A DNA stretch of 64,000 bases from a virus, in the IMG/VR virus record IMGVR_UViG_3300044856_000343, positions 4,194 through 68,193 of that record. One strand, given 5' to 3'. The notes beneath the pieces were generated by a model, which was given only the letters and a program-made list of their open reading frames with translations, ran no database searches and had not been told where the DNA came from. The position numbers and the translations under genes were made by a program. Each line of letters opens with the position of its first letter. Position 1 is the stretch's first letter. This document shows, one piece after another, positions 3,657-34,305 of this stretch.

Positions 3657-4289
3657 ATGTCTTTATATGGAATTGATTTTTTAAATGAAAAATCTGATGA
3701 AATAGTATCTACAGCAAATAGACGTATCGAAGATATATTTGGATATAGATCTCCAAATGGTAGTTATAATGCTTTGGTAAAGATTACTGGAATAGATGGA
3801 TTGTTACGTGGAAGATCTGAAATGCTAGTATTAGATGAAACAAATACAAAGGTATTTTTAGATCTTCATAAAGACGGATCTTACAAAATTTCTGGTGGAT
3901 CTTGGAACGAAAATGAAGATTATATGGCTGCTGCTATTAGAGAAACTCAAGAAGAAATGAGAATCAATGTAAAAGATATTGTATATGCTGGTGGATATAT
4001 TACTTATTATAGTAATATAAATGGTCAACATAATATTCCGAAGCAATATAGATGGATTGGTACTTATACTCAATTATATATTGGAACAGAAAATGGTACC
4101 TATACTAAACCTATTGCTAAAAAAGATCAAGATGATATTTATTGGAAAGGAAAATATTATGATATTCATGAAGTATATAACTATTTAAACAAATATCATA
4201 AACATGCAATAAATATTATTCGTAGACGTAATAAAGAATTGGAGGACAATTATGGGTCAAATTATAACAGAAACAACTTTTTTATCTGA
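3657..4289 (+). CDS. Nudix hydrolase
   Basis: Nudix box GGSWNENEDYMAAAIRETQEEMRI (GX5EX7REUXEE); AAGGAGG SD. Confidence 0.85.
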   Translation: MSLYGIDFLNEKSDEIVSTANRRIEDIFGYRSPNGSYNALVKITGIDGLLRGRSEMLVLDETNTKVFLDLHKDGSYKISGGSWNENEDYMAAAIRETQEEMRINVKDIVYAGGYITYYSNINGQHNIPKQYRWIGTYTQLYIGTENGTYTKPIAKKDQDDIYWKGKYYDIHEVYNYLNKYHKHAINIIRRRNKELEDNYGSNYNRNNFFI

Positions 4290-19276: not shown

Positions 19277-19570
19277 TTACTGCAATATTACTTTAATAGC
19301 ATGATCCGTAAGAGATTCTATACCTACAGAAATTGGTCTATTGTAAATTACAATATTTCCAGACTGTATATTAGATAAAGCTAAATCTCTATCATTATTC
19401 GATTTGAATATAATAGAGAATTCGATTGAGCTGTCATTATTATTATCAACTGTAACACTACCTTTATCTTCGACTATTTGCTTTAATGCAATAAAATGAT
19501 CGAAGAAATCAACAATCATTTTTGGGTATTGAATTCCACTAATCGAATCAAAAAATTGAATTCTATTCAT
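19277..19570 (-). CDS. Hypothetical protein
   Basis: ORF track; GGAGG SD. Confidence 0.75.
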   Translation of the reverse strand: MNRIQFFDSISGIQYPKMIVDFFDHFIALKQIVEDKGSVTVDNNNDSSIEFSIIFKSNNDRDLALSNIQSGNIVIYNRPISVGIESLTDHAIKVILQ

Positions 19571-19588
19571 TTCTTAGTAACCTCCAAC

Positions 19589-19804
19589 TTAAGTCATTTC
19601 ATCCACAACTTCTTCCATAGCTGCAGCTTTCTGTTCTTCAGCAGAATTAAGAAAGTTTACATATTGCTTATAAATAGCGTGGATATATCGATTAGGCATA
19701 TTCTCCAATTCCCCAATTGTAATAGTACCCTTAAGATATTTACTTAGGTTGATTAGTTTAATGATGTATTGGTTAAAGCTCCCAGTTGATAACGGGTAAA
19801 AACC
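19589..19804 (-). CDS. -1 frame extension (69 aa after the shift), T4 gp51 / lambda gpT-like
   Basis: Not in ORF track. Open frame (GF)YPLSTGSFNQYIIKLINLSKYLKGTITIGELENMPNRYIHAIYKQY...EMT*, starting 2 codons after a TGA; no usable start before the conserved part. Confidence 0.7.
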   Translation of the reverse strand, partial: GFYPLSTGSFNQYIIKLINLSKYLKGTITIGELENMPNRYIHAIYKQYVNFLNSAEEQKAAAMEEVVDEMT

Positions 19805-21507
19805 AGCTCTTCAGCAGAAGTTCTCTGCTCCTCTGTCATAGTATGGCACTGTGGACATTCTACTGATGGATATACATAGTACATTCCAGGATTCATAGCA
19901 ATAATGTCTCTTACATATGCTTTTACTGGACCAAACTCATCAACAGATAATGTGTTGAAGATCTTCTCATATTTCTGCAGCTTAGACTGAACAGTCTTAA
20001 CAGCATTGTCTGTATACTTCTTATATCCAACTGGAATAAGTTCATGAGTTTCCTGATTGATAACGTACAGCTCATCAATATATGGAATATAATCAATGAT
20101 TGATGAATATTTACGTCTTGTAGCATCATCGAGAGAAGCTAACTCAAACACATTGTAGATTGATGGCTCTCTGAATCCAATTGCAACTGACTCACTAAGA
20201 GGAACAACCTCAGATACAAACAATCCATTTGATACTGGAGATGCTTCACTCTTGTACAGCTTGCTGAACTCTTCTTTTGCTTTACTATTCTCAAACTTAA
20301 CCATATCCATGATTTTAATATCATCAGTAAGGAAAGTTTTCTTACATCTTGTATTGATACAATCCTCTGGTAAGAAATTTGCACCATTGAAAGATGCAAT
20401 ATAAATAGCAAAGAAGTAATGGTCTACATCTCTGTATGGAGTTACCTTGAGCCACTGCTCGAAGCTTGAAGGTCTTGCAGATGCAATATGATCATATATC
20501 ATATGGAATCTTCTATTGAGGGCATCTACAGAATTTCTATCCTCGCTATACTCACGTAGCTTCTCTAATTCTGATCCAGAGAACTCTTTCACAAAAATAG
20601 TAGCCTTCTGTGTTGGTAATACCCATTTAGCAACCTTAGCTTTATTTGGCTTGAAGAATGGCATTACATTTGTTACTGGCTTTTTAACAACAGTAAATGA
20701 AGAAATATCTAATTTCTTAGATGTAGGCTTTAATCTCTCTGTAGCCATATCCTGCAACTGCTTTAAGATAGTATCATCATCAGTTTCTGCAATCTCAGAG
20801 TTATTAATCTCTTCATCATCATTATCATCGGTAGCATCTTCTACTGAATCTCCAATAGATTCTACGCCTTCCTCAACATCAAGATCGATATCTGGAGCAT
20901 CAAAAACCTCATCCTCATCATTTGAAGACTCATCTGTTTCTGTAAGAGCTGCATTGGATTGCTCAGAATATACTTCATCATTATCGGCTGCATCGATATC
21001 AAGATCATCTGTTACATCCATATCATCAATATCCATAGATGCATCATCTGAATCCTCATCAAAATCATCTGATATTAATGATCCTTTTCCTTCAGATGCT
21101 TCTGCTGATTGCTCCATACTCTTCTCATCCTTATTTGCTGCCTCAAGCTCTGCCTTCTCTTGCTGCTCTGCCATCCACTCATGATACTCACTTGTTTCTT
21201 TTTCTACATATTTGCTAAAAGCAGAATCTGGACCTTCAAGAATAGATTTAGCAAGTGCCTCTCCAGCATTCTGAGGCATATCTGCATCTTCCTCATCCTG
21301 AGGTGCAATTGTAGAAACATTTACAGATTGTCTTGGAGCTACAGTTGCTGTTTGTGGCTTTTGATTATTTTGAGTTATAATTGTTTTTGCTCTTCCAATT
21401 GTTGCTGGTTCCTGAACAGAGTCTGACTCCATAACTCCAACAGTATGATCTGGATTTGTAATATCAATATTTACTGATCCATCCTTAAGATTATCAAGTG
21501 CACTCAT
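19753..21507 (-). CDS. Baseplate hub/tail assembly chaperone (T4 gp26-like) with long acidic N-terminus
   Basis: VKEFSGSE, TPYRDVDHYFFAIY, CINTRC, IGFREPS and CPQC match the gp26-like pattern; next to a gp25-like gene. Confidence 0.65.
   Translation of the reverse strand: MSALDNLKDGSVNIDITNPDHTVGVMESDSVQEPATIGRAKTIITQNNQKPQTATVAPRQSVNVSTIAPQDEEDADMPQNAGEALAKSILEGPDSAFSKYVEKETSEYHEWMAEQQEKAELEAANKDEKSMEQSAEASEGKGSLISDDFDEDSDDASMDIDDMDVTDDLDIDAADNDEVYSEQSNAALTETDESSNDEDEVFDAPDIDLDVEEGVESIGDSVEDATDDNDDEEINNSEIAETDDDTILKQLQDMATERLKPTSKKLDISSFTVVKKPVTNVMPFFKPNKAKVAKWVLPTQKATIFVKEFSGSELEKLREYSEDRNSVDALNRRFHMIYDHIASARPSSFEQWLKVTPYRDVDHYFFAIYIASFNGANFLPEDCINTRCKKTFLTDDIKIMDMVKFENSKAKEEFSKLYKSEASPVSNGLFVSEVVPLSESVAIGFREPSIYNVFELASLDDATRRKYSSIIDYIPYIDELYVINQETHELIPVGYKKYTDNAVKTVQSKLQKYEKIFNTLSVDEFGPVKAYVRDIIAMNPGMYYVYPSVECPQCHTMTEEQRTSAEELVFTRYQLGALTNTSLN
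19798..19804 (-). other. Candidate -1 frameshift site G_GUU_UUU
   Basis: In frame 14 codons before the stop; the -1 frame opens just upstream. Confidence 0.65.
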
Positions 21508-21526: not shown

Positions 21527-21904
21527 TTAATTTGATTTTATATCTTCCAATTTTATTGGAACTGGTGCTGATTTTGACTCATATACATATGTCATATCGC
21601 CAACAGAAATTTCAATATTACATAATTTATCAGGTGTTCTGATCATAGCAATATTTACATTTTGATACATTGGTAAATATGTTTCAATTTGATTCTGTAT
21701 ACGATCTTTTAATTCTTCTAGAGTATCTTGACCGTATCGAAAGTTTTTTAATCCAATTCCCATTTCTGGATGAAGTCTATCCTGTCCTGGGTTCATAAGC
21801 ATTAATTCCATCAATCTCATAGCAATTGAATTTTTTCCTTCGACATATCTAGGGTTTTTAAAGTTATCTACTGAAAATAGATATTCTTTATTCTTTATAC
21901 TCAT
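21527..21904 (-). CDS. Baseplate wedge protein, T4 gp25/GPW-like
   Basis: LMLMNPGQDRLHPEMGIGL motif; 125 aa. Confidence 0.8.
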   Translation of the reverse strand: MSIKNKEYLFSVDNFKNPRYVEGKNSIAMRLMELMLMNPGQDRLHPEMGIGLKNFRYGQDTLEELKDRIQNQIETYLPMYQNVNIAMIRTPDKLCNIEISVGDMTYVYESKSAPVPIKLEDIKSN

Positions 21905-32760: not shown

Positions 32761-34305
32761 TTAGAACAGAACATCATCTCCATCATCATCTTTAGCAACT
32801 TTCTTCTTACTAGCATCATCTTTCTTAGATTCTGCATCAGCTTTATTCTGAGCCTGCTTTACATCCATGCTAAAGATATTTGACCATTTCTTAAGTCTTG
32901 CAGCCCATTTACGCTGTTTATTTGCAACCTTGGCTTTTTTATCATCATCCATATCAGAAGAATGCTCAACATCATCTGCATGAGCTTCCAGCATCTGAGC
33001 CTGAATCTCCAGATAATCAGAGAACTTCATACTAGAATATACAAGGTTGTAAATTAAGTTCTTAGCTGTTGGAAGAATAATCTTGATAAATACCCATCCT
33101 AATGTAAGTCCACCACCGATAGCTAAAACAGTTTTCTTAGCTTTACCAAGAGTGCCAACATACTTGCTCAACTTAAACTTACCATTTGATCCTTTGTATT
33201 TATCGCTATTCAGATCACTAAGTAATCTTCCAAGTTTTGAAGCATTCTTATCAATGAATCCTCCAATTGCAGCTCCAGTATTCTTTGCTGAGAATTCATT
33301 TACAGGCTCTGTAGGAAGATCATCATCTCCATCATCTGTAACCTGTGGAATGTTCTCTGGTTCAACGTCATCATTAAGATCGTCATCATCAAACATAGCC
33401 AGAACATCATCATCAAAATCTGGTGCATCATCTCCATCATCATTTGGATCATCAAGATCTAAATCATCTGGATTTGGTAAAATGACTGGATGACTCTGAG
33501 TATAATCATCATATCCAGCTGGTTTTACATCTGGTACATCAGATGGCATTGCTCTGATAGGATCTACTCCTGGCTCATTATCACATTTGAATGGCTCGCA
33601 TCCATTGCTTGAATCAAATGGAGATTCATTATCTCCATCCATAGAAGCTACATATCCTGCTCCATCATCATCGGCACCAAAGATATCTCCAGCTTCTTTT
33701 ATTGGAGTTAATGTATTTGCAAGAATAGCATCCATAGTTCCATTTGCACATAAATCATTGAATCCAGATAACTGCTTAAACATTACATTCTCAGCAGACT
33801 GCTTGTAAGCCGCAACATCCATACTGAATGAATTATTGCTAGTATCTTTGATATAATCAATACATGATGCAATCAGATAAGATACAGATCTGAAAATAGA
33901 TAATACAATCAGATTGTACATTACCATTGGAAACTCTGCATTCATTCCATATGCTTTTGTAAACTGCGGTTTACGATCAACAATATTCTGAATAGCTGCA
34001 CTGATAATATCTACAGGAGCTGGATTCTGATGATACTGTACAACAAGCTGACGAATAATATCGATACACTTCTTATTATTCTCAAATCCTTGTACCTTTG
34101 TAATATCTCCACGAGATTTTGGAATAGTTCCAAAATCAATCTCATCAACTTTAGCTACAATCTTGTCATATAATGCTGCTGAAAGAGCATCAATCAACTG
34201 TTCCTGTTGAGCATCTTCAAGAGTAACGATATATTGACGAGTATATTTATCAGATAAATCAAAATTCTCTCTGATTATCTGATCATAGTCTCGTTTTAAA
34301 ATCAT
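32761..34305 (-). CDS. Probable virion protein with acidic linker and a hydrophobic helix
   Basis: D-rich linker, PVNE|F, then a basic region and LAIGGGLTLGWVFIKIIL. Confidence 0.55.
   Translation of the reverse strand: MILKRDYDQIIRENFDLSDKYTRQYIVTLEDAQQEQLIDALSAALYDKIVAKVDEIDFGTIPKSRGDITKVQGFENNKKCIDIIRQLVVQYHQNPAPVDIISAAIQNIVDRKPQFTKAYGMNAEFPMVMYNLIVLSIFRSVSYLIASCIDYIKDTSNNSFSMDVAAYKQSAENVMFKQLSGFNDLCANGTMDAILANTLTPIKEAGDIFGADDDGAGYVASMDGDNESPFDSSNGCEPFKCDNEPGVDPIRAMPSDVPDVKPAGYDDYTQSHPVILPNPDDLDLDDPNDDGDDAPDFDDDVLAMFDDDDLNDDVEPENIPQVTDDGDDDLPTEPVNEFSAKNTGAAIGGFIDKNASKLGRLLSDLNSDKYKGSNGKFKLSKYVGTLGKAKKTVLAIGGGLTLGWVFIKIILPTAKNLIYNLVYSSMKFSDYLEIQAQMLEAHADDVEHSSDMDDDKKAKVANKQRKWAARLKKWSNIFSMDVKQAQNKADAESKKDDASKKKVAKDDDGDDVLF

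Follow-up and report, generated by a model that had tools for sequence, protein, structure and literature searches.

The locus

We analysed a stretch of 64,000 nucleotides from the IMG/VR virus record IMGVR_UViG_3300044856_000343 (positions 4,194 to 68,193 of that record), which we call the window. One of its genes encodes a protein of 584 amino acids that resembles the baseplate hub assembly proteins of phage T4, and the 3' end of this gene overlaps with a second open reading frame (ORF) in the -1 frame. The features of the junction are as follows:

21507..19753, minus strand: the 0-frame gene, 584 amino acids, with the C-terminal end ...SAEELVFTRYQLGALTNTSLN
Parts of the 584-residue protein: a short conserved N-terminus, then a hyper-acidic variable region of about 200 residues, then a C-terminal domain of about 315 residues (residues 270-584)
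19813..19811, minus strand: TGA that closes the -1 frame, three codons upstream of F570
19804..19798, minus strand: slip site G_GUU_UUU (V569-F570)
19797..19756, minus strand: dual-coding overlap, read as TRYQLGALTNTSLN in the 0-frame and as YPLSTGSFNQYIIK in the -1 frame
19755..19753, minus strand: 0-frame stop TAA
19798..19592, minus strand: -1 frame extension of 69 codons, with the conserved core KG..TIGEL.NMPNRY.H..Y and an acidic end

The codons of L568, V569 and F570 are CTG GTT TTT (19806..19798, minus strand), and 14 codons (TRYQLGALTNTSLN) lie between Phe570 and the 0-frame TAA. The -1 frame is open from 19810 to a TAA at 19591..19589 (minus strand); because of the TGA at 19813..19811 there is no room for an upstream start in this frame. 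Read in the -1 frame, the sequence continues after F570 as YPLSTGSFNQYIIKLINLSKYLKG... (YPLSTGSF...), so that a product of 570+69 = 639 amino acids is possible. An initial annotation of the window had placed G_GUU_UUU 14 codons before the stop of a 584-residue ORF, and had described a -1 frame that opens just after a TGA, encodes 69 residues and gives products of 584 and 639 residues; the positions and counts all hold.

The first canonical start codons of the -1 frame in the window are a TTG at codon +31 and an ATG at codon +34. This ATG follows a GGAG, which resembles a Shine-Dalgarno (SD) motif, at a distance of 3 nucleotides, and had been pointed out as the only one of its kind and as lying after the conserved part. 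In our comparison it lies inside the conserved core.

The folded domain is preceded by the hyper-acidic, low-complexity region rich in Asp and Glu (residues ~60-270; window 20700-21500, minus strand). The length of this region is highly variable among the homologues, whose total lengths range from 454 to 853 residues.

Conservation of the slip site

The protein family comprises 616 clusters at 50% identity. In every complete sequence among the 150 cluster representatives listed, the 0-frame stop follows 9-18 residues after an invariant [LVMI]-[LV]-F motif; 4 of the 150 are fragments that break off before the end. For the junction itself we compared the DNA of 23 distinct relatives (30-64% identity), which were gathered via cluster-level alignments. 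These 23 loci are not fully independent of one another, and third positions elsewhere are saturated (entropy about 1.6 bits).

The slip site has the consensus G/A + [G/C]UU + UUU(U/C). The Val or Leu codon before the Phe ends in U at 22 of the 23 loci, against a background of 0.45 for U at third positions (P 4e-7); GUU or CUU make up only ~37% of the Val and Leu codons in the same genes. The Phe codon is UUU at 21 loci (P 5e-6). The strongest bias concerns the base before the Val/Leu codon, which is G in 19/23 loci compared with a background of 0.16 (P 6e-12). As this G stands upstream of the shift and mostly just downstream of the -1 stop, it cannot be put down to -1 coding, whereas it does fit a re-pairing of the tRNA in the ribosomal peptidyl site (P-site) from GUU to GGU.

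A U-run could also be the place at which the polymerase, and not the ribosome, slips: if one U were added in a fraction of the mRNAs, the same 639-residue fusion would be made. We hold this to be quite unlikely. The conserved element is indeed a homopolymer, mostly U5 and reaching U6-U8 in the relatives L015, L010 and L040 and in the phage BpSp, these phages encode unusual multisubunit RNA polymerases of their own, and the protein product would be identical. Yet most sites are only U4-U5, and bacterial RNA polymerases slip efficiently only on runs of about 7-9 or more. The ribosome is also favoured by the conserved G that precedes the Val/Leu codon, since this base fits P-site re-pairing.

Conservation of the overlapping frame

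Next, we counted the stop codons between the U-run and the 0-frame stop. The 335 overlap codons of the 23 loci contain 33 stops when read in the +1 frame and not one when read in the -1 frame, whose stop density over the 250 upstream codons is 0.15 per codon. When codons were shuffled synonymously, with amino acids and codon usage kept for each locus, the joint probability that all 23 -1 frames stay open was ~10^-13.4.

The overlap also shows traces of selection on the protein that the -1 frame encodes. The third base of the 0-frame codon +10 is U in 22/23 loci, though the 0-frame residue varies there (N/S/T/A/G/L), and the corresponding -1 codon +11 encodes an aromatic residue in the same number of loci (Y16, F5, W1; the remaining locus has L). 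Likewise, third-base conservation in the 0-frame codons +3 and +5 results in a -1 Ser at +4 (18/23) and a -1 Gly at +6 (14/23). Judging from these codon patterns, the -1 frame is under purifying selection at the protein level within the overlap, upstream of every candidate start codon.

Two overlapping frames might of course arise by chance, by mutation that breaks a gene or by an error of assembly. Such an accident would explain the bare existence of the two frames and nothing else. The arrangement is kept in a family of 616 clusters, in which the 0-frame stop is conserved too, and independent samples show it unchanged: the 0-frame tail is shared by 52 near-identical proteins from elsewhere, and neither of two DNA assemblies has an indel at the U-run, so that a sequencing error can be dismissed. 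The listing of 150 representatives, the comparison of 23 loci and the stop statistics together effectively refute this explanation, and we consider its probability negligible.

Start codons in the -1 frame

A further possibility is that the tail is a separate protein of ~55-60 residues, translationally coupled to the 584-residue gene by termination and reinitiation at or near the stop, without any frameshift. The start would be an ATG where one is present and a near-cognate codon elsewhere (ATC in the window, ATA or GTT in other loci). In 15 of the 23 relatives there is indeed an ATG, GTG or TTG at codons +12 to +22, and in 7-8 of these the stop and the start overlap exactly. Gene callers predict ORFs of 58-64 residues at this place. 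The ATC of the window stands exactly where the relatives L007 and L008 carry the ATG of a TAATG, and T4 gene 26, too, has an annotated internal initiation product (gp26').

On the other hand, reinitiation leaves several observations unexplained: the conservation of the U-run and of the preceding G at synonymous sites, the fact that from the run to the 0-frame stop the -1 frame is never closed, and the selection on the -1 codons +4, +6 and +11, all upstream of every candidate start. In 8/23 loci, the window included, there is no ATG, GTG or TTG before the conserved core, and where a Met is present its position wanders between +12 and +22. A peptide that started at or after the stop would also lose part of its first helix, since in the structural model helix 1 begins within the overlap. 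Finally, in the cultured phages AR9, S6 and phiR1-37 the run is followed by 18-50 open codons without any start. Coupling can explain neither the conserved run, nor the open frame, nor the selection ahead of the start codons. It is therefore excluded as the general mechanism, and we regard it as unlikely for the gene in the window.

Cultured relatives

The family includes AR9, PBS1, BpSp, Staphylococcus jumbo phages and phiR1-37. Searches of the window gene and of the tail against GenBank phages with megablast and tblastn gave no match. AR9 could be reached only by a profile search, in which the profile of the domain matched AR9 g231 with E 6.7e-24; BpSp, S6 and phiR1-37 were then found by tblastn with AR9 g231. 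The sites in these four phages are:

AR9: ATG CTT TTT CAT; in the -1 frame a Ser/Gly-rich linker, then the tail
BpSp: CTT TTT TTT; -1 frame open into the tail
Staphylococcus phage S6: ATG CTT TTT CGG; -1 frame open into the tail
Yersinia phage phiR1-37: ATT CTT TTT ACC; -1 frame open into the tail

In all four the -1 frame is open through linkers that are longer and rich in Ser and Gly. As a positive control, the AR9 tail was compared with the tail profile and matched with E 2e-6.

The tails are annotated in these phages as small ORFs. The annotated start of AR9 g230 (KU878088 198881-199081) is a CTG; S6_1160 and phiR1-37 g242 start with a TTG inside helix 1, and BpSp gp285 with an ATG in the middle of the conserved core. 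These four small ORFs look like mis-annotated frameshift tails. In phiR1-37, g240 carries the note "phage structural protein", which g241 and g242 do not.

Conservation of the heptamer and of the frame in AR9, PBS1 and relatives had been suggested as a check; AR9, BpSp, S6 and phiR1-37 keep the U-run and an open -1 frame that leads into a homologous tail. The surmised phiKZ/AR9-type setting stands as far as AR9 is concerned, since g231 has the same site and the same frame; phiKZ gave no match to the family profile. The central proposal of the initial annotation, namely that a programmed -1 shift takes place shortly before the gene ends, is backed by the conserved run, the open frame and the selection in the 23 loci, and by the four cultured phages.

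Identity of the 584-residue protein

An AlphaFold2 (AF2) model of residues 270-584 has a predicted local distance difference test score (pLDDT) of 82 and a predicted template modelling score (pTM) of 0.81. Its fold matches in BFVD include homologues from uncultured myoviruses (E 1e-28 to 1e-23), further proteins of ~500 residues from many jumbo phages and, at E 1e-7 to 1e-5, proteins of ~250 residues named "Baseplate hub assembly protein, bacteriophage T4-like", "Baseplate hub subunit" or "Baseplate hub assembly chaperone". For the T4-like hub assembly entries in BFVD the template modelling score, normalised by target, is 0.48-0.59. Foldseek searches of the domain against PDB and AlphaFold/Swiss-Prot returned noise only, and there is no solved structure for comparison.

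We were not able to assign the protein by sequence profiles. Pfam gave no match at E<=1 for the 584-residue protein and PHROGs nothing significant (the match of the protein P0002 to phrog_7837 had a non-significant E of 0.012). Comparing the family profile with T4 gp26, T4 gp51 and the gp51 family by hhalign resulted in weak matches around the CxxC knuckle only. The domain has two conserved Cys pairs, and the helix that follows the second pair ends the short form. Fold and synteny, and not hidden Markov models (HMMs), support the predicted identity as a baseplate hub assembly protein of the T4 gp26/gp51 type. The gp26-like nature that had been proposed for this protein is borne out by the BFVD matches (E ~1e-7), the two conserved Cys pairs and an adjacent gp25-like gene.

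We also looked at a 514-residue ORF elsewhere in the window (32761-34305, minus strand; PHROG "virion structural protein"), which has a sub-threshold 13-bit match to PF12322. A role as a second gp26-like family member is unsupported, as its hhalign comparison with the family profile was non-significant.

The 69-residue tail

In its AF2 model (pLDDT 82) the tail forms a module of three helices. Helix 1 starts at residue 9 after the shift, which is inside the overlap, with six codons left to the 0-frame stop. Between the slip site and the end of the conserved core the tails align almost without gaps; a single-residue gap in three sequences is the only one there.

The initial annotation had recognised in the tail a likeness to T4 gp51 and to the T extension of lambda-type chaperones. 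Our comparisons do not establish that the tail is homologous to the tail of gp51 or to lambda gpT. Using hhalign in local, global and low-mact modes, no significant match was obtained: the tail alignment scored E 0.073 with T4 gp51 and E 0.16 with a profile of 90 gp51 sequences, and there is only a short resemblance, K..Y.L.SIM.MIP against KG..TIGEL.NMP. Pfam and PHROGs found nothing for the tail; at E<=0.01, not one sequence of the tail alignment had a PHROG match. A Foldseek search of the tail against BFVD gave no significant match (best E 0.18).

Several of the top BFVD matches to the tail are small ORFs from the same phages that gave the domain matches, and two of them have accessions adjacent to those of the domain matches (LE4 LED6/LED7, I1VX76/77). 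We regard this as a lead and not as a result.

A proposed frameshift and the points against it

The best explanation of the locus, to which we assign a probability of roughly 80%, is a programmed -1 frameshift by which the hub assembly chaperone would be made in forms of 584 and 639 residues. Most ribosomes would stay in frame and terminate after 584 residues, and some would slip back by one base on GUU-UUU (V569-F570), enter the overlapping -1 frame and complete 639 residues. In the long form, the three-helix C-terminal module of 69 residues would replace the last 14 residues. A single gene would in this way yield two hub chaperones, one short and one long, whose ratio is fixed. The comparison shows the site, the open frame and the conservation and selection of both; the ribosomal nature of the slip and its efficiency are things that we infer, and the tail may act as an added binding surface for another hub or tail component.

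Several observations weigh against this explanation. First, G_GUU_UUU is not canonical when compared with X_XXY_YYZ. Only the U_UUU in the ribosomal aminoacyl site (A-site) re-pairs perfectly; in the P-site, the change from GUU to GGU keeps 2 of 3 positions, and CUU would meet GCU or ACU. A canonical site, U_UUU_UUA, is found as an exception in L010 and L040. Second, we were not able to find a conserved downstream stem or pseudoknot: folds of 60 nucleotides at the 23 loci have z-scores from -2.8 to +1.4 and no common structure. Inspection of the upstream sequence also revealed no clear SD-like stimulatory motif. Third, no homologue is fused in frame among the 150 cluster representatives listed. 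Fourth, the only RNA contigs that touch the region, from two metatranscriptomes, end before the slip site.

The start codons described above are a further difficulty. On the question of whether homologues use an independent start, the loci are divided: 8/23 have no canonical start, and the other 15 have one within a few codons of the 0-frame stop. The relatives with an exact overlap (TAATG, ATGA, TGATG or TTGA) are L007, L008, L016, L017, L018, L021, L037 and L015, that is, 7-8 of those 15, and by a rough estimate such overlaps are more frequent than chance would have it. In L021 the U-run is lost and a TAATG is present. Some lineages may also, or instead, make the tail as a free coupled peptide.

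Genomic setting and occurrence

The window belongs to a jumbo phage that encodes a primase, a homologue of GroEL and beta subunits of RNA polymerase that are split; the IMG/VR contig has a length of 71 kb and is estimated to be 44% complete. The gene order in the window is a zinc-finger endonuclease (on the opposite strand), the gp25-like wedge gene, the 584-residue gene, the -1 ORF and a gene of ~100 residues. The direct neighbours are:

21527..21904, minus strand: upstream neighbour, 125 amino acids, weakly gp25-like (baseplate wedge); GPW_gp25 E 0.0036, below the curated cut-off
19277..19570, minus strand: downstream neighbour, 97 amino acids, directly after the extension

The same five genes are found in the same order in Bacillus phage AR9: g233, g232 ("base plate wedge subunit"), g231, g230 and g229. 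The GroEL gene of AR9 (g228) comes directly after g229, whereas in the window an RNA polymerase beta subunit gene and two ORFs lie between the 97-residue gene and the GroEL homologue. The downstream gene of ~100 residues, with the N-terminus M.R..FF.SI, directly follows the tail in most of the loci inspected (e.g. L004 4146-4442, L010 3158-3469) and also occurs in AR9 (g229), BpSp (gp284) and S6 (S6_1170); L018 and phiR1-37 lack it at this position. Its product is a candidate partner of the chaperone or of its tail.

DNA nearly identical to window 19300-20300 was found in the runs of ~12 studies, mostly of pig gut metagenomes, and in a sample of bioreactor sludge. Small parts of the same segment are also present in bovine gut metatranscriptome assemblies.

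Implications

It is characteristic of long-tailed phages that their tail-assembly chaperone genes undergo programmed -1 frameshifting. We know of no report of such a shift in a hub chaperone of the gp26/gp51 type, and our full-text literature searches for one found no publication. The site described here would thus be a conserved and so far unannotated recoding site in a very large phage family (616 clusters) that is common in pig-gut metagenomes. The case extends to the AR9-like jumbo phage lineage and to phages that are cultured and genetically tractable. It would also correct the annotation of the small downstream ORFs, whose starts are at present given as CTG or TTG or are placed too far downstream, within the conserved core, and would offer a rationale for why T4 needs two paralogous and poorly understood hub chaperones.

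Comparison with known systems

The slip site resembles that of red clover necrotic mosaic virus, a eukaryotic plant virus, whose site G_GAU_UUU is likewise a heptamer without XXX in the P-site and acts together with a downstream stimulatory structure. Both sites share A-site slippage on U_UUU, a partial re-pairing in the P-site and a preceding G. The plant virus differs in having a downstream structure, which we did not find at our loci.

The lambda heptamer is G_GGA_AAG and hence differs from G_GUU_UUU. The logic of the lambda gpG/gpGT system is nevertheless close to what we propose. The -1 frameshift in tail assembly chaperone genes is conserved according to Xu, Hendrix and Duda 2004, as cited in PMC9024508, and the E/E+E' pair of phage P2 is another system of this kind. 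In lambda as in our gene, a -1 shift near the 3' end of an assembly chaperone gene would exchange a short C-terminus for an extra domain, giving two forms with a shared N-terminal part, presumably in a fixed ratio. The protein families are different, and there is no Pfam or PHROG match to the G or T families. Lambda G/GT lies upstream of the tape-measure gene and serves as a chaperone of tape measure and tube, whereas our gene has a gp25-like gene, a 97-residue gene and an RNA polymerase subunit gene as neighbours and, by homology, a putative role at the baseplate hub. Of the G/GT-like pair that had been proposed for the window, the analogous mechanism and logic therefore stand and the membership in the family does not; the gene had also been placed far from the tape-measure gene, and no such gene is adjacent to it.

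In T4, gp26 (208 residues) and gp51 (249 residues) are paralogues, and both match PF12322 (T4_baseplate). The protein gp26 fills the whole family model, and gp51 matches it over residues 1-201 and has in addition a C-terminal tail of ~48 residues; PF28602 is a newer Pfam family on gp51 homologues. Both proteins are given as baseplate hub assembly chaperones (PMC3004832). Our protein shares with them the fold of the domain and the two Cys pairs, and, as in gp26, it is with the helix after the second pair that the short form ends. In both phages a gp25-type wedge gene lies beside the chaperone gene, the order in T4 being 25-26. On the other hand, an additional acidic region of ~270 residues at the N-terminus is absent from T4 gp26 and gp51, and T4 gene 26 has no U-run at the equivalent place (TTC TTT). 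While T4 has short and long forms from two paralogous genes, here they plausibly come from one gene and a frameshift. The T4 genome also carries gene 26' (AF158101 115802-116089), annotated as an internal in-frame initiation product, gp26'. Hence the hub chaperone gene of T4, too, has more than one product, though these arise in another way.

These likenesses lead us to a broader idea, which we put forward tentatively and consider rather doubtful as yet. A short and a long hub chaperone made by recoding might be the general, possibly ancestral, state of gp26/gp51 across jumbo and T4-like myoviruses. T4 genes 26 and 51 would then be a derived duplication, and the tail of the long form would be the functional counterpart of lambda gpT. 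If this is true, the tail would bring a second component, of the hub or of the tube, to the hub or tape-measure complex to which the chaperone is bound, and the rule of the conserved frameshift in tail assembly genes would reach groups of phages that have so far been thought to be without it.

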